DNA from: Gammaproteobacteria bacterium
GTDB lineage: Bacteria; Pseudomonadota; Gammaproteobacteria; Eutrophobiales; Eutrophobiaceae
Length of the DNA: 64,000 nt
Assembly: GCA_965215365.1 (NCBI GenBank)
Contig: CBDCDS010000003.1
Span: 736,001-800,000 of the forward strand
Direction of reading: 5' to 3'
Of the stretch, positions 2,940-55,953 are shown in pieces (position 1 is the stretch's first letter; each line of letters opens with the position of its first letter). Both the position numbers and the translations under genes were made by a program. The notes beneath the pieces were generated by a model. That model saw only the letters and a list, made by a program, of their open reading frames with translations, did not search any database and was not told where the DNA came from.

Positions 2940-4701
2940 GGGCTACCCCGGCGCCGGCTGGGATGCGCACATCATCGACCAGGGCCTTGACGTGTTCCGG
3001 CGGTTGCGCAGTGAACCGGCTGACGCTGAACGCAACCGCGAAGTTGACCGCCATACCGATGCTGCCGATACCCTCCGGCGAGATGCCCAGCCACCAGTTG
3101 TCCGGGGTGCTGGCGGCGGGGTTGATGAACTTGAACCAGATGATATACCCGGCGGTGAACAACAGGCCGCTCAACATACCGGCAATGGCGCCTTCACGAT
3201 TCATGTTGCGCACGAATATCCCTAAGAAAATGGCGGGGAACAGCGACGCCGCGGCCAGCCCGAACGCGAACGCGATCACCTGGGCAACGAATCCCGGTGG
3301 ATTGATGCCCAGGTAGCCGGCAAAGCACACCGCCAGCGCCGCGGCAATGCGGGCATAGGACAGTTCCTGCTTTTCATTGATGGCCGGCATCAGGGTCTTT
3401 TTGAGCAGGTCATGGGAGATGGATGTGGACACCACCAGCAGCAGTCCTGCCGCCGTGGACAAGGCCGCAGCCAAGGCCCCGGCCGCCACCAGTGCCAACA
3501 CCCAGGGGGGCAAGTCGGCCAGCTCCGGGCTGGCCAGCATGATGATGTCGCGGTCCACATACACCTCATTGGCGTTGTCCAGCGGCGTGTTGTCCACCAG
3601 TTTCTGGCCGTGCTCACCGCGTCCGGCGGCGAACTCCGGCGCGCCCTCAAACGGGGCGCCGGCGGCATATTGAATCCGGCCATCCTCATTTTTGTCCAGC
3701 CAGGCAATCAGGCCGATATCTTCCCAGGTCTTCACCCAGGACGGCGCTTGCTGGTAGGCAGTGTTGTTGACCGTGTCGATGAAGTTCAGCCGGGCGAACG
3801 CGGCCAGCGCCGGCGCCGTGGTGTATAACAGGGCAATGAAGACCAGCGCGTAGCCTGCGGACTTGCGCGCATCGGACACCTTGGGTACGGTAAAGAAACG
3901 CACGATGACGTGCGGCAGGCCGGCGGTGCCGGCCATCAGCACCAGGGTGATGGTAAACATGTCGATCATGCTTTTGCTGCCGTCGGTGTAGGGCGCAAAC
4001 CCCAGCTCCACCAGTACCTGGTCCAGTTTTTCCAGCACGCGCAGACCGGAGCCGTCCTGGACCTCGGCGGCCAGCCCCAGTTGCGGCACCGGGTTGCCCG
4101 TGACCAGCAGCGAAACAAAGATGGCCGGGGTAAGATAGGCGCAGATCATGACGCAATACTGTGCCACCTGGGTGTAGGTGATGCCTTTCATACCACCCAG
4201 CACGGCGTAGCAGAACACCACCGCCATGCCGATGATCACCCCGGTCGTGATCTCCACTTCTAGGAACCGGGAGAACACCACGCCGACCCCGCGCATTTGC
4301 CCGGCCACATAGGTAAAACAGATAAAAATCAGGCAGACTACGGCCACCACGCGCGCCGCGCCGGAGTAATAGCGCTCGCCGATAAAGTCCGGCACGGTAT
4401 ATTGGCCGAATTTGCGCAGATAGGGCGCCAGCAGCAGCGCCAGCAACACGTAGCCGCCGGTCCAGCCCATCAGATAGACCGAACCGTCATAACCGGCGAA
4501 GGCGATCATGCCGGCAATGGAGATGAAGGAAGCAGCGCTCATCCAGTCCGCCGCAGTCGCCATACCGTTGGTCAACGGATGCACCCCGCCGCCGGCCACG
4601 TAGAAGTCCCTAGTTGACCCGGCCCGGGACCCGATCGCAATACCGATGTAGAGCGCAAACGTCAGCGCGACTACGATATAGATCAGCATTTGCGGGGTCA
4701 T
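2929..4701 (-). CDS. Sodium:solute symporter, ActP-like cation/acetate symporter
   Basis: NGMATAADWMSAASFIS, GTAGLPHVIVRFFTVP, many transmembrane segments. Confidence 0.9.
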   Translation of the reverse strand: MTPQMLIYIVVALTFALYIGIAIGSRAGSTRDFYVAGGGVHPLTNGMATAADWMSAASFISIAGMIAFAGYDGSVYLMGWTGGYVLLALLLAPYLRKFGQYTVPDFIGERYYSGAARVVAVVCLIFICFTYVAGQMRGVGVVFSRFLEVEITTGVIIGMAVVFCYAVLGGMKGITYTQVAQYCVMICAYLTPAIFVSLLVTGNPVPQLGLAAEVQDGSGLRVLEKLDQVLVELGFAPYTDGSKSMIDMFTITLVLMAGTAGLPHVIVRFFTVPKVSDARKSAGYALVFIALLYTTAPALAAFARLNFIDTVNNTAYQQAPSWVKTWEDIGLIAWLDKNEDGRIQYAAGAPFEGAPEFAAGRGEHGQKLVDNTPLDNANEVYVDRDIIMLASPELADLPPWVLALVAAGALAAALSTAAGLLLVVSTSISHDLLKKTLMPAINEKQELSYARIAAALAVCFAGYLGINPPGFVAQVIAFAFGLAAASLFPAIFLGIFVRNMNREGAIAGMLSGLLFTAGYIIWFKFINPAASTPDNWWLGISPEGIGSIGMAVNFAVAFSVSRFTAQPPEHVKALVDDVRIPAGAGVAHGH

Positions 4702-5169: not shown

Positions 5170-8446
<3,277 letters not shown>

Positions 8447-8606
8447 ATACCTCTTTTGGATTCAACCCTATAGCTTCAGCATAGCGTTTAATCAAACGGG
8501 GAATATCGGAATGGTGCAAGGGATTACCTCTTATTGCACCTCCACGTCGCATGGTCTGAAACAGGTAACCGTGGGTGATTCCGGCGGCATCTATCCATGT
8601 CTGTAA
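8447..8606 (-). pseudogene. Tyrosine recombinase (Cre-like) internal fragment
   Basis: Manual translation LQTWIDAAGITHGYLFQTMRRGGAIRGNPLHHSDIPRLIKRYAEAIGLNPKEV, the segment that normally precedes the HxxR motif. Confidence 0.7.
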
Positions 8607-8694
8607 TCTGTAACTGATTGATTATTTTGATTTTGCATCATTTTGGAGCCCCTGATAACTCGTTTTCAAGAGCGCTTGATTAAAACATGGTTAT

Positions 8695-39280: not shown

Positions 39281-40102
39281 TCAAGCCAGCGGGCCGGCCA
39301 GCTCCAGCGAGCGTTGCCGCGCGGCCGTCAGCGCCTGCCGCAGCAACGCCTCCAACCCTTGTTCCTGAAATACCTGCAAGGCCTGTTCCGTAGTGCCGCC
39401 GGGGGAAGTGACCCGCTGCCGGAGGGTGGCCGCCGGTTCGCCGGTTTCCTTCAGCATCCGCGCCGCCCCCAGCGCGGTTTCCACGCTCAGCAGGCGCGCC
39501 TGTTGTTCGGACAGGCCCAGCTCGCCGGCAATTTTTTCCAGCAGTTCCACGATCAGGAAAAAATAAGCAGGCCCGCTGCCGGAGACGGCAGTGACGCTGT
39601 CGAGCAACGCTTCCTCGGCCAGCCAGACCGTGACGCCGACCGCCTGCATAATGCGCGCGGCACTATCGCGCGGCGCGGCACTGACATCGGTGCCGGCGTA
39701 CAGGCCGGTGGCGCCGGCGCGCAACAATGCCGGCGTATTGGGCATGGCGCGCACTACCGGACAGACTCCGCCCAAGGCCGCCCGGATGGTCGCGCAGCGC
39801 ACCCCGGCAACGATGGACAACACCAGCGGCGACCTGTTTTGCAGAGCTTGTTGCAGTTCGGCCAGCGCCGCCGGGAGCGTCTGCGGCTTCACCGCCAGCA
39901 CGATAATGTCGGCGTCGGCGACCCCTTCGGCTAGCGCCGCCACCGTGCGTATCGCGCAACGCTGTGCCAGCCGGCGCCGCTGGGCTTCATCCGGGTCAAC
40001 GCCACACAGAGAGGACGCAGGATACCCGTTCGCAATGAGACCGCCGACAAGACTGGCCCCCATATTGCCACAGCCAAGAAAGGTGACATTCTGATCCTGC
40101 AT
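39281..40102 (-). CDS. proC: Pyrroline-5-carboxylate reductase
   Basis: GCGNMG, LAVKPQ, RAMPNTP, SGSGPAY, VTSPGGTT. Confidence 0.96.
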   Translation of the reverse strand: MQDQNVTFLGCGNMGASLVGGLIANGYPASSLCGVDPDEAQRRRLAQRCAIRTVAALAEGVADADIIVLAVKPQTLPAALAELQQALQNRSPLVLSIVAGVRCATIRAALGGVCPVVRAMPNTPALLRAGATGLYAGTDVSAAPRDSAARIMQAVGVTVWLAEEALLDSVTAVSGSGPAYFFLIVELLEKIAGELGLSEQQARLLSVETALGAARMLKETGEPAATLRQRVTSPGGTTEQALQVFQEQGLEALLRQALTAARQRSLELAGPLA

Positions 40103-40161: not shown

Positions 40162-40178
40162 AGGGGGCGAGTAGTTAC
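40162..40178. repeat. Solo IS66 terminal inverted repeat
   Basis: AGGGGGCGAGTAGTTAC, identical to 55901-55917. Confidence 0.7.
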
Positions 40179-40187
40179 AGCCGTGGC

Positions 40188-40871
40188 TCACTTGCGCGGC
40201 CCGAACAGCGCGGTACCGATCCGCACCAGGGTTGCGCCCTCGGCAATGGCGGCGCGCATGTCGTTGGTGGTCCCCATGGATAAGGTATCGAGAGTGAAAC
40301 CCCGGTCGATGAGCCGTTCCTGCGCCTGCCGCAGCTGCGCAAAGGCGCGCCGCTGCACAGTAAAATCAGCCGCCGGCGCCGGCAGCGCCATCAGCCCCCT
40401 CAGCCGCAACCGGGGCAACGCGCAAATCTGCTCCGCCAACGCTTCCAGCGCGTCCGGGGCGACGCCGGACTTGCTCGTCTCGGCGTCAATATTAACCTGT
40501 ATGCACACGTTCAGCGGCGGCAGGCCGGGCGCACGCGCGGTATCTAGTCGCGTGGCAATGCGCCCGCGCGCCAGCGAGTGTACCCAATCGAAACAGGCGG
40601 CGATGGCGCCGGTCTTGTTGGACTGCGCCGGGCCGATAAAATGCCAACCAAGCGACTGCTCAGACAGTTGTTTGAGCTTGCCCTGCGCCTCCTGTACATA
40701 GTTCTCCCCGAAGTCCGTCACCCCCAGCTGCGCCAGCGCCCGCACTGCGTCGGCGCCCCGGGTCTTGCTTACCGCCAGCAATTTCACACTCCCGGCTTCC
40801 CGCCCGAACTCCCGCTCTGCTTTTGCTATCTCCCGGCGCACCCGTTGCAAACGCTCAGGTAAATCATTCAT
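40188..40871 (-). CDS. yggS: PLP homeostasis protein
   Basis: LLAVSKT, FGENYVQE, WHFIG, LSMG, VRIGTALFG. Confidence 0.96.
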   Translation of the reverse strand: MNDLPERLQRVRREIAKAEREFGREAGSVKLLAVSKTRGADAVRALAQLGVTDFGENYVQEAQGKLKQLSEQSLGWHFIGPAQSNKTGAIAACFDWVHSLARGRIATRLDTARAPGLPPLNVCIQVNIDAETSKSGVAPDALEALAEQICALPRLRLRGLMALPAPAADFTVQRRAFAQLRQAQERLIDRGFTLDTLSMGTTNDMRAAIAEGATLVRIGTALFGPRK

Positions 40872-53545: not shown

Positions 53546-53692
53546 TTTAATCCCTCCTTATCAGATAAATTGATACTGGAAAGCGCATGATAAACACTAT
53601 TGCCAACCAACGCAAGCAGAATTTTCCAATATGAAATGGGTAACTACTCGCCCCCTCCCTCTAATTCTACTGAATTTTTTGTCAAGGCGTCC

Positions 53693-53721
53693 TTGACAAC
53701 ATAGCGTCATGGCGTTATGTT
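53693..53721 (+). promoter_or_regulatory. Sigma70-like promoter inside the IS66 left end, overlapped by inverted repeats
   Basis: TTGACA-17 nt-TATGTT; palindrome TTGTCAAGG-cgt-CCTTGACAA covers the -35. Confidence 0.6.
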
Positions 53722-53728
53722 GGTCGTC

Positions 53729-54409
53729 ATGGGGAATGCGTACCGAGGGTCGAAAGCCACGACGGGTCTGTGCCAGCCGCTCATTGCGATGATGCCGCCG
53801 CACAGTGTGTACATTGAGACACACTTAGGCGGCGGGGCGATTATGCAGCGCAAGCCGGCGGCGTTGCGCAACATTGGGATTGATCTTGATGTGCGGGCGT
53901 TGGCGGGGTTTACGTGTAGGTATCCGGTGGAGTTGGTGCAGGGGTGTTGTCACCGCTGGTTGGCGACTTTTCCGTTTGACGGCACGGAGTTGGTGTACAG
54001 CGACCCGCCCTACCTGCACAGCACGCGCAAGTCACGGCACCGTTACCGGTATGACTACGAGGACTCAGACCATGAGGCGCTGCTGGCGTTACTGCAGGGG
54101 CTGCCCTGTGCGGTGATGGTGTCGGGGTATCCTTCGGCCTTGTATGATGAGGTGCTGGCGGGCTGGCGCAGTGTGTCCTTGCAGGTGATGAATCAGGGCG
54201 GGGTGGTGACCGAGCGGGTCTGGTTCAATTTTGTGCCGGACCGGGTGCACTGGGTGCGCTATGCGGGGCGCAACTTCACGCACCGCCAGCAGGTCAAGCG
54301 CAAGGCTGAGAACTGGGGGCGGCGTTATCGTGACTTGCCCCCGGCCGAGCGGCTGGCGGTGCTGGCGGCGATGATGGCGGTGGAGGCACAGTGCACATGG
54401 CCACGGTGA
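53729..54409 (+). CDS. Compact Dam-like DNA adenine methyltransferase
   Basis: YRGSK, YIETHLGGGAI (motif I), YSDPPY (motif IV), MVSGY. Confidence 0.85.
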   Translation: MGNAYRGSKATTGLCQPLIAMMPPHSVYIETHLGGGAIMQRKPAALRNIGIDLDVRALAGFTCRYPVELVQGCCHRWLATFPFDGTELVYSDPPYLHSTRKSRHRYRYDYEDSDHEALLALLQGLPCAVMVSGYPSALYDEVLAGWRSVSLQVMNQGGVVTERVWFNFVPDRVHWVRYAGRNFTHRQQVKRKAENWGRRYRDLPPAERLAVLAAMMAVEAQCTWPR

Positions 54410-55953
54410 ACAAGGCCTCATTGCGTGCGGAGTTCGAGGCCATCCGAATGCGTTTTAAGGCGTTGTGCGCCGACGGCGCGCTGAGTCCCGAAGGGCGTGC
54501 GCTGTTCGAGTCGATGTTGCTGCTATTCGAGTTGCTGCTGGCGGTGTTCTTAGAGAAGACCACACCGAAGGGGGCGCACAACTCCAGCCTGCCCAGTTCC
54601 CGCACCGACCCCGATGACAGTGCGCGCACACGGCCCGGCAAGCAGGGCAAGGGGCCGCAGACCGGGACGGTGCCCAGCGCGTCCCGGCGCGTGGTGGCTC
54701 AGACCCGCACGGTGCCCGTGACCGGCTGCCGGGCCTGCGGGCATGATCTCAAAGGCACCGCCCCCACCGGCCATGTGCGACGAGTCAAGGTCGATATAGT
54801 CTTCGAGACGACCGAGTTGACCATTGACGCCGAGATAAAAACCTGTCCGCGCTGTGGCACTGAGACCCACGGGGCGTTTCCCGATGACATGCCGGGGCCT
54901 TTACAATACGGCCCTGGCATCGTGGCTTTCGCCACGCACCTGTTAACGGCCCAAATGCTCTCGCTCAAACGTACGGCGCAGACACTTCATGCACTGACCG
55001 GGCGCGCCGTCGCCGAGGCGACCTTACTGGCCTGGCTCACGCGGGTGCATGAGGCCCTGGCCGGGTGGGAGCGGGCGGCTATCGCCCGCCTGCTCACAGA
55101 GCCCGTGCTGCACGCCGATGAGACCTCCTTGCGCATCGACCGCACACAACACTGGCTGCACAGCACCAGTGCCGGGAACCTGGTACTGAAACACTGCCAC
55201 CGCAAGCGGGGCGGGGACGCCCTCAAGGACATCGGCATCGTCCCCCGCTACGGCGGTGTTCTCGTGCACGACCGCTGGGCCAGCTACTTCGCCTATGACA
55301 ACTGCGAGCATGCCCTGTGCGGCAGTCACCTGTTGCGTAACTTGGCCTTTATCGAGGACGCCCACGGCCATGCCTGGGCCCAACGTATGAGCCGCCTCCT
55401 GCTCAAGACCTGCCGACAGGTGCGCACACATAAAAACAAGGCACTCAGCGAGACCGACTACCAGTCCCTGCGCACCCGCTACCGGACTATCCTGACACAA
55501 GCCAAACGGGAACTCCCCACACCCCCGAAACGGCTCACCGGCCAACGCGGACGGATTGCCCAATGTGAGGCACAAAACCTCCATGATGCCCTCGTCAAGT
55601 ACGAAACCGAAGTCCTCCGCTTCGCCCGCGACCCCAACGTGCCGTTCACCAACAACCGCGCCGAACGCGATATCCGTATGGCTAAAGTCAAACAAAAAGT
55701 CTCCGGCTGCTTCCGAACCACCGCCTACGCCGACACCTACTGCCGCATCTCCAGCTACTTGCAGTCTATGACCCTGAAGGGCTACAATCCCCTCGCCGCC
55801 ATCGAGATAGCACTCAAGGGAGACGCCGCCACCATGGTGGAAAAACCGCTCAAAAATAAAACGGTTAAGAAAAACCAGATCAGAACAAGAGATCAGGGTA
55901 AGGGGGCGAGTAGTTACCTTTTTTTGATAGTATATTCGTATGATGATGATTAA
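54397..55953 (+). CDS. IS66 transposase TnpC
   Basis: NSSLPSS, CxxC zinc-finger pairs, HADET, VHDRW, LCGSHLLR, PFTNNRAERDIRMAKVKQKVSG; reads through the right IR. Confidence 0.92.
   Translation: MATVNKASLRAEFEAIRMRFKALCADGALSPEGRALFESMLLLFELLLAVFLEKTTPKGAHNSSLPSSRTDPDDSARTRPGKQGKGPQTGTVPSASRRVVAQTRTVPVTGCRACGHDLKGTAPTGHVRRVKVDIVFETTELTIDAEIKTCPRCGTETHGAFPDDMPGPLQYGPGIVAFATHLLTAQMLSLKRTAQTLHALTGRAVAEATLLAWLTRVHEALAGWERAAIARLLTEPVLHADETSLRIDRTQHWLHSTSAGNLVLKHCHRKRGGDALKDIGIVPRYGGVLVHDRWASYFAYDNCEHALCGSHLLRNLAFIEDAHGHAWAQRMSRLLLKTCRQVRTHKNKALSETDYQSLRTRYRTILTQAKRELPTPPKRLTGQRGRIAQCEAQNLHDALVKYETEVLRFARDPNVPFTNNRAERDIRMAKVKQKVSGCFRTTAYADTYCRISSYLQSMTLKGYNPLAAIEIALKGDAATMVEKPLKNKTVKKNQIRTRDQGKGASSYLFLIVYSYDDD

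Follow-up and report, generated by a model that had tools for sequence, protein, structure and literature searches.

An IS66-family insertion sequence with a Upf31-family, Dam-fold gene ahead of its transposase: a candidate self-regulating operon

Anatomy and mobility of the element

We analyzed a window of 64,000 nucleotides from the genome of a Gammaproteobacteria bacterium (contig CBDCDS010000003.1, positions 736,001 to 800,000), in which positions 53640-55917 hold a 2.28-kb IS66-family insertion sequence (IS) with GTAA-type inverted repeats, a single sigma-70 promoter, and two genes that overlap, open reading frame 1 (ORF1) and tnpC. The left terminal inverted repeat (GTAACTACTCGCCCCCT; 53640..53656, + strand), an end present in 13/13 full copies of the element in this genome, is matched by the right one (55901..55917, - strand). 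In the window GTAACTACTCGCCCCCT occurs exactly three times (53640 on the + strand, 55901-55917 and 40162-40178 on the - strand) compared to no occurrences in shuffled sequences, and a repeat search extended the terminal pair to 32 nt with 81% complementarity. ORF1 (53729..54409, + strand, with an alternative upstream ATG at 53717) encodes a 226-aa Upf31-family protein with the fold of the DNA adenine methyltransferase Dam; 53729 is its likely start because homologues begin at the equivalent Met (MGNAY...). The second gene, tnpC (GTG 54391 or ATG 54397 to 55953, + strand), encodes an IS66-family DDE transposase that matches PF03050 (E = 2.2e-42; 145.9 bits, cut-off 23.1) and NF033517 (E = 8.5e-74; 248.9 bits, cut-off 180). 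Its frame in the window is 520 aa long and, when read from ATG 54397, shares 13 nt with the 3' end of ORF1.

IS66-family elements are characterized by GTAA terminal repeats, an 8-bp target duplication, and, in the canonical arrangement, the genes tnpA-tnpB-tnpC, while the ISBst12 group comprises IS66 relatives with tnpC alone. The present element shares with the family its TnpC-type DDE transposase, its GTAA ends, and its 8-bp duplications. It departs from canonical IS66 elements in that tnpC is not preceded by tnpA and tnpB: the space between the repeats accommodates ORF1 and tnpC only, and ORF1 matches neither of the missing genes. It also departs from the ISBst12 group, in which tnpC is the sole gene, in having a conserved second gene, with a promoter and operator, upstream of tnpC. 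An earlier note on this DNA, made from the letters alone, had described an IS66-family element with two co-oriented, overlapping genes and without tnpA or tnpB, and the ORFs together with the PF03050 and NF033517 matches bear this description out. Its wording that ORF1 stands in place of TnpA/TnpB is apt as a description. Among annotated TnpC relatives on plasmids, the nearest (34-36% identity) include IS66-like transposases of Geobacillus and Bacillus, which we take to be of the single-gene ISBst12 type; hence ORF1 and its upstream region (the cassette) look added to a one-gene IS, not swapped for tnpA/tnpB.

The element is an active insertion sequence. The genome (2.73 Mb in 3 contigs) contains 13 full-length copies that are 99.9-100% identical, plus fragments; all 13 carry the GTAA-type end GTAACTACTCGCCCCC at both termini and an intact ORF1. 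Perfect 8-bp target duplications, which the earlier note had proposed to look for, flank 10 of the 13 full copies, whereas the window copy is one of the three without them. The 12 other full-length copies measure 2279 bp and have one G more in the right repeat than the window copy, so that the perfect 17-bp repeats described previously are correct for the window copy but give way to a perfect match of 16 bp in the other 12. Because this G is missing from the G6 run of the right repeat, the window tnpC runs 15 codons further into the flank, to 55953 (region 55895-55953), while in the canonical copy its stop is a TAG within the right repeat (505 aa counted from ATG). A search of 300 other genomes sampled from the same phylum gave one match at E <= 1e-40, a 43% relative, and one genome of the same family gave none; the element is thus sporadic.

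The ten duplicated octamers have a G+C content of 41% (counted by hand) compared to 58% for the genome, and to judge from these sequences the element seems to insert into DNA that is A+T-rich and probably intergenic. Three copies (C1:66951, C3:879837, and C3:1921378) have an identical right flank, which suggests inter-copy recombination or a repeated target. The solo identical repeat that had been noticed at 40162 was recovered at 40162-40178 (- strand), as a stretch of ~18 nt (CAGGGGGCGAGTAGTTAC) in the gap between the minus-strand ORFs 39281-40102 and 40188-40871. No further IS sequence is attached to it, and it may be the scar of a deleted IS copy.

Fold and family of ORF1

The two motifs singled out in the earlier note, YIETHLGGG (motif I) and DPPY, are present in ORF1, and the likeness of the protein to Dam is real, albeit weak by sequence. 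ORF1 scores below the cut-offs of the Dam models PF02086 (18.6 bits, cut-off 22) and TIGR00571 (22.9 bits, cut-off 114.85), and its single sequence found no match in a PDB search, whereas a profile of 46 diverse homologues matched DpnM (2.4e-10) and E. coli Dam (~1e-5). These homologues show no variation at G34, D92, P93, or P94 and at least 90% conservation of E30, G36, and Y95. Since the motifs for binding of S-adenosylmethionine (SAM) and the DPPY motif are invariant, ORF1 probably still binds SAM, and it may methylate or flip an adenine in its own operator (see below). The DpnM match falls into two pieces (DpnM residues 16-72 and 183-266) and skips residues 72-183, which we take to be the target-recognition region.

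An AlphaFold2 model of ORF1 (predicted local distance difference test score of 91.4, predicted template modeling score of 0.86) consists of a Rossmann core followed by helices 183-201 and 205-221, and Foldseek returned E. coli Dam as its top fold match in the PDB (E = 2e-7, template modeling score of 0.52-0.55). The model lacks a target-recognition domain and contains a basic two-helix C-terminal domain; profile, model, and Foldseek match thus agree with the Dam-like protein, with little room for target recognition and a basic C-terminal extension, that had been read from the sequence. Compared to E. coli Dam and DpnM (D12-class, alpha-group), ORF1 has the same fold and motif order (X, I, IV-VIII), is missing the inserted DNA-recognition domain, and has an added C-terminal helical domain. 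A homodimer prediction for ORF1 scored 0.24 against a mark of 0.42 and counts neither way. As far as these models go, "DNA adenine methyltransferase" is, for ORF1, a statement on the fold only.

ORF1 also displays a local likeness around motif IV (E = 0.001) to NF010253, presumably the M.EcoGIX family model. M.EcoGIX and M.BceJIII, single-strand-specific plasmid methyltransferases, resemble ORF1 in being small orphan genes on mobile DNA; grouping ORF1 with them was ruled out, as the parts of PMC7736820 consulted here assign both to the beta class.

A tblastn search of plasmids with ORF1 returned 190 records, all below 60% identity, that include upf31.0 of IncP-1beta plasmids; 133 of the 190 are typed conjugative. 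ORF1 aligns with pB3 Upf31.0 at 45% identity (residues 5-220 against 3-222, E = 4e-67), C-terminal domain included, and on this alignment is a full-length member of the Upf31 family. The Upf31 proteins of pBP136, pB3, and R751 (~225 aa) have a Dam-like N-terminal domain and a C-terminal domain, as ORF1 does, and the Trp noted in the C-terminal domain of Upf31 is conserved among ORF1 homologues. The setting differs: Upf31 stands alone in the plasmid backbone, and two further plasmid homologues (~52% identity to ORF1) likewise stand among backbone genes, not transposases, whereas ORF1 heads a transposase operon inside an IS. In a large protein set we counted 4565 ORF1 homologues at E <= 1e-3, along with 6137 representative clusters, and ISs give the Upf31 family another setting, much more abundant than the IncP-1beta plasmids.

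The family to which ORF1 belongs is not uncharacterized, because Upf31 was studied. According to the passages of Elg et al. 2025 drawn on here (PMC11997246), methylase-free E. coli with an upf31 expression vector gave no methylation signal when sequenced by the single-molecule real-time (SMRT) method, and GATC digests revealed no methylation by Upf31. When its own 68-bp promoter drove xylE, the protein did cut expression, from 4.76 to 0.09 XylE units, and the same passages recount that an earlier, C-terminally truncated R751 upf31 allele failed to repress, which suggests that the C-terminal domain is needed for repression. The authors propose a conserved IncP-1beta inverted repeat (CAGCATCG) as the Upf31 operator and, from an AlphaFold prediction, binding of the C-terminal domain to KorB (PMC11997246).

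The function assigned to ORF1 in the earlier note, that of a DNA adenine methyltransferase, therefore shrinks to a fold, the studied relative being described in those passages as an autorepressor with no detectable methylation (PMC11997246). The accompanying statement that no system of this kind had been characterized overlooked the Upf31 family, but it stands with respect to the IS: in the literature searched we found no published IS headed by a Upf31-like or Dam-like gene, although an ISfinder entry may already exist. The element may thus be an IS66-family IS with a Upf31-family regulator that has not been previously described in the literature found.

Promoter, operator, and transposase partners

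The only good promoter-like site found on the + strand of the element is a sigma-70-type promoter, TTGACA-17-TATGTT (53693..53721, + strand, 10/12 matches), whose end lies 7 nt before the ATG at 53729, as the earlier note had it; from this spacing a leaderless mRNA starting at 53729 is plausible. The -35 box and the spacing are preserved in relatives. Two palindromes overlap the promoter, again in agreement with the earlier reading: TTGTCAAGG-cgt-CCTTGACAA (53679..53699, + strand), whose right arm includes the -35 box and which is weakly kept in relatives, and AACATAGCG-N6-CGTTATGTT (53698-53721, + strand). The putative operator CATAG-N10-TTATG (53700..53719, + strand) occupies the promoter spacer and the -10 box and is a variant of the pattern NTAG-N10-CTAN.

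To assess the conservation of this site we compared the 110-nt stretches that precede ORF1, from the window and from those related loci with enough upstream sequence, 44 distinct sequences in all; here and below, related loci are the best 79 of 168 relatives, from 32 assemblies, ranked by likeness to ORF1. The pattern TTGAC[ACT]-N2-NTAG-N10-CTAN fits 37 of the 44 distinct cassette upstreams, with a spacer of always 10 nt, and fits none of the mononucleotide shuffles. The seven misses are near variants or truncations: the second arm reads TTAT in the window copy and L011 and TTAG in L033 and L034, L023 is without the -35 box, L039 is cut by the IS boundary, and the remaining one is L059. Some arms vary jointly on both sides (GTAG/CTAC in L055, ATCG/CGAT in pB3).

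The same layout is found on plasmids. The pB3 upf31 promoter reads TTGACAGCATCG-N10-CGATGCTG, with the inverted repeat CAGCATCG-N10-CGATGCTG, and so places a 10-nt-spaced inverted repeat between its -35 and -10 boxes as the IS cassettes do; the half-site is CATCG in IncP-1beta plasmids and mostly CATAG in the IS cassettes. CATAG-N10-CTATG stands just upstream of the two further plasmid homologues mentioned above, twice in the Xanthomonas plasmid. That the family and the palindrome of its own promoter stayed together across plasmids and ISs is our main reason for transferring the autorepressor function to ORF1. Outside the IS copies, this genome contains 7 operator-like sites compared to ~3 expected from base composition, which makes no case for an excess of such sites in the host genome.

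In the Xanthomonas oryzae plasmid homologue (L091:2920-2975) the two sites form tandem ATAG-N10-CTATGCTG palindromes upstream of the gene, an arrangement that recalls the repeat clusters of IncP-1beta plasmids. Outside the lineage of the window, most cassettes (L020-L080) also have, between the -10 box and the ORF1 start, an inverted repeat of 8-10 bp whose sequence varies (e.g., TGTTGATCC...GGATCGACA); the window's lineage, with its start codon 7 nt past the -10 box, is without it. This repeat forms stems in single folds, with z-scores that are mostly weak, and a MAFFT alignment of the cassettes yielded no consensus structure for it.

Among the related loci, ORF1 is followed by an IS66 TnpC in 64 (24 assemblies), by a DDE_Tnp_1-type gene in 4 (2 assemblies), and by an ISKra4 transposase in 1 (1 assembly). 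IS701 follows in 3 loci of one assembly that also has the IS66 type, IS1634 in 1 locus of that same assembly, and an IS481-like sequence in 1 locus (1 assembly); 4 loci (4 assemblies) offer too little sequence and 1 locus (1 assembly) showed nothing downstream of ORF1. The idea that ORF1 and TnpC travel together is thereby upheld in 13/13 full copies here and in 24 of the 32 other assemblies. In other genomes the repeated unit, 2267-2356 bp in length, is ORF1 plus tnpC. In almost every intact pair the transposase start falls within -41 to +20 nt of the ORF1 stop, and many pairs have in common a 4-nt ATGA overlap between the two genes. TnpC partners are 25-77% identical to the window TnpC, compared to 66-91% for ORF1.

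The ISKra4 locus, L056, is a complete ISKra4 element carrying the ORF1 cassette. Its transposase matches NF033572 (6.5e-103), ORF1 and the transposase lie between 23-nt inverted repeats (3753-3775 / 6161-6183), the element has a 7-8-bp direct repeat, AATGACA, on its flanks, and pieces that start or end exactly at these repeats were found on other contigs of that assembly. The stretch between the left repeat and the promoter includes GTAACGACTCACC (L056:3890-3905), which nearly duplicates the IS66 left end; it is found ~37 nt upstream of the cassette promoter, a position that corresponds to the place of the left repeat in IS66-type relatives. This near copy points to an IS66-type element as the probable source of the ISKra4 cassette.

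The DDE_Tnp_1-type partner was recognized by weak Pfam matches, below the cut-off. Relative to the ORF1 stop, its start lies at -4 nt in L021 and at about +13 to +50 nt in L019. In L021 a search for the ends of this element turned up no inverted copy of its left end. Downstream of the DDE_Tnp_1-type gene (L021:5990-6050) there is a short tandem repeat of GATCAAAAAAGATTACCCGAAAT-like units, within a >3.6-kb unit common to three loci of that genome, and a large recombinase-like ORF follows at 6869-8668.

IS701 was considered as a true partner and rejected as unproven: in four loci of one assembly, homology with an IS66-type copy continues ~75 nt past the ORF1 stop into tnpC, ahead of the IS701 sequence. 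The IS701, IS1634 (L033), and IS481-like (L067) neighbors look like later insertions into tnpC. The starting point of the IS701-family element hardly differs among the four loci of that betaproteobacterial assembly (L032, L033, L034, and L036) and lies ~75-80 nt past the ORF1 stop; the ORF1 parts are 92-93% identical and the IS701 parts 97%. Either this point is a preferred target of IS701 or a composite was copied.

Phylogenies of the two proteins tell different stories at different depths. The IS-borne ORF1 proteins fall into one clade (support 99/96), separate from five outgroups of the plasmid type. Within this clade partner types are intermingled; for instance, the ORF1 of the ISKra4 element is placed as sister to an ORF1 whose TnpC partner is very divergent (100/98). 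The TnpC tree has a deep split. Forcing into monophyly the seven ORF1 rows whose TnpC partners lie beyond this split, a group chosen once the first ORF1 tree had been seen, costs 49.3 log-likelihood units (approximately unbiased test, p = 8.4e-5). In shallow clades the two trees agree, which implies that pairs co-diverge for a while and that cassettes are exchanged over longer times. The earlier note had named incongruent phylogenies as a refutation of its reading; the trees are indeed incongruent at depth, but their shallow clades are not, and the conflict at depth indicates that the cassette is modular, not a chance passenger.

A candidate autorepressor and its alternatives

By the usual view, ISs limit transposition via host factors or via small DNA-binding proteins made from the transposase gene itself. 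A built-in regulator that has the shape of a methyltransferase and an operator of its own would be unlike this usual control. We favor, with moderate confidence, the reading that ORF1 is an autorepressor that throttles the ORF1-transposase operon. Starting from the anatomy and mobility of the element, the Upf31 homology, and the operator conservation, all of which were observed directly, we infer binding, repression, and an effect on transposition as follows. The single promoter just inside the left end would drive a two-gene operon, ORF1 followed by tnpC. ORF1 would bind the palindromic operator NTAG-N10-CTAN, between and over the -35 and -10 boxes, and, once bound there, would repress its own promoter. 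Because tnpC overlaps or closely follows ORF1 and no second promoter was found, transposase output would come under the same negative feedback. Arrival in a naive cell would thus bring a burst of transposase, and with growing repressor levels and copy number every copy would be silenced in trans. Control of transposition by a product of the element, as the earlier note envisaged, remains the best idea, with promoter repression as the likely route; the self-written methylation that it offered as the means is unproven.

Several points weigh against autorepression by ORF1. The repression itself is carried over from a plasmid protein that is 45% identical, and the C-terminal domain of that protein is also predicted, in the passages cited above, to bind KorB (PMC11997246), a partner that is absent here. 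A distance of ~14 bp separates the operator half-site centers, an unusual spacing for a simple dimeric repressor, and the window operator has one imperfect arm (TTATG vs CTATG). The strict conservation of DPPY exceeds the need of a pure DNA binder. The transcription start and the co-transcription of ORF1 and tnpC are predictions from sequence. Finally, part of the contrast between the high identity of ORF1 and that of TnpC stems from the sampling, in which loci were picked by their likeness to ORF1.

The invariance of DPPY favors some catalytic or base-flipping role, while the published Upf31 negatives, as given in those passages, argue against general methylation. Host Dam methylation controls IS10, IS50, and IS903 at GATC, and a self-contained version of the control known for IS10 and IS50 can be imagined here, in which ORF1 is an active, very site-specific N6-adenine methyltransferase that marks its own operator or the IS ends. 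Hemimethylation or entry into a new host would then tie transposase expression or use of the ends to replication or arrival, an arrangement compatible with repression. Host-Dam control, also cited in the consulted parts of PMC9296519, has in common with the present element the link between a Dam-type protein and a transposase promoter and the possible coupling to replication or new-cell entry; it differs in that the methylase is host-encoded and acts at GATC, whereas ORF1 is element-encoded and known as a Dam fold only. The SAM-binding and DPPY motifs that are invariant or nearly so in the 46 diverse homologues, the Dam fold confirmed by profile and Foldseek, and the conserved adenines in both operator arms all fit such an enzyme, and a long, operator-sized target might be absent from the strain of the published SMRT experiment as those passages present it. 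We nevertheless consider an active methyltransferase unlikely: Upf31 gave no detectable methylation by SMRT or GATC digests in the account cited (PMC11997246), the target-recognition domain is missing from ORF1, the IS66-type and ISKra4-type ends that flank the cassette have no evident common motif, and operator-like sites are in no excess outside the IS copies (7 vs ~3 expected).

A more far-reaching reading, which we put forward tentatively and think doubtful, combines both activities. Promoter, operator, and ORF1 would form a portable governor that DDE transposases of unrelated kinds (several deep IS66 lineages, ISKra4, and a DDE_Tnp_1 type) have acquired on repeated occasions, and ORF1 would be a SAM-dependent enzyme that marks the adenines of its own operator, a private epigenetic signal. 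If true, a signal written by the element would time transposase bursts to replication or to new-host arrival, independently of the host methylome.

It is quite improbable that ORF1 is cargo, that is, an orphan methylase that serves anti-restriction or alters the host methylome and plays no part in transposition. Close homologues do carry the annotation "DNA methylase" in their sources, and the relatives on plasmids are in 133/190 records typed conjugative. However, ORF1 always lies between the sole promoter and the transposase, often translationally coupled to the latter, and cassette and operator are kept before at least three kinds of transposase. Moreover, the studied homologue Upf31 did not methylate in the experiments described (PMC11997246), and the parts of PMC7736820 used here show the plasmid anti-restriction role filled by a different, beta-class family, M.EcoGIX. 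Least probable of all is a transposition cofactor acting through protein contacts, its C-terminal domain recruiting the transposase or a host protein, with no action at the promoter: the conservation of this domain (including the Trp noted in Upf31), the tight ORF1-transposase gene order, and the analogy with the Upf31-KorB binding predicted in the cited passages (PMC11997246) suit it, but the cassette serves unrelated transposases (IS66 lineages at ~33% identity, ISKra4, and the DDE_Tnp_1 type), which makes a specific contact of ORF1 with every partner unlikely.

If ORF1 is an autorepressor, many genes annotated "DNA methylase" beside transposases may be regulators. The cassette appears to move between transposase families and would offer a natural module in which to study the copy-number self-control of mobile DNA, and the 2.3-kb element provides a simple system to settle whether Dam-like proteins of the Upf31 family methylate. 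The consulted parts of PMC9296519 speculate that orphan methylases might regulate transposons in Thiohalocapsa PB-PSB1; the genome of this organism contains two ORF1 cassettes (L037 and L048).

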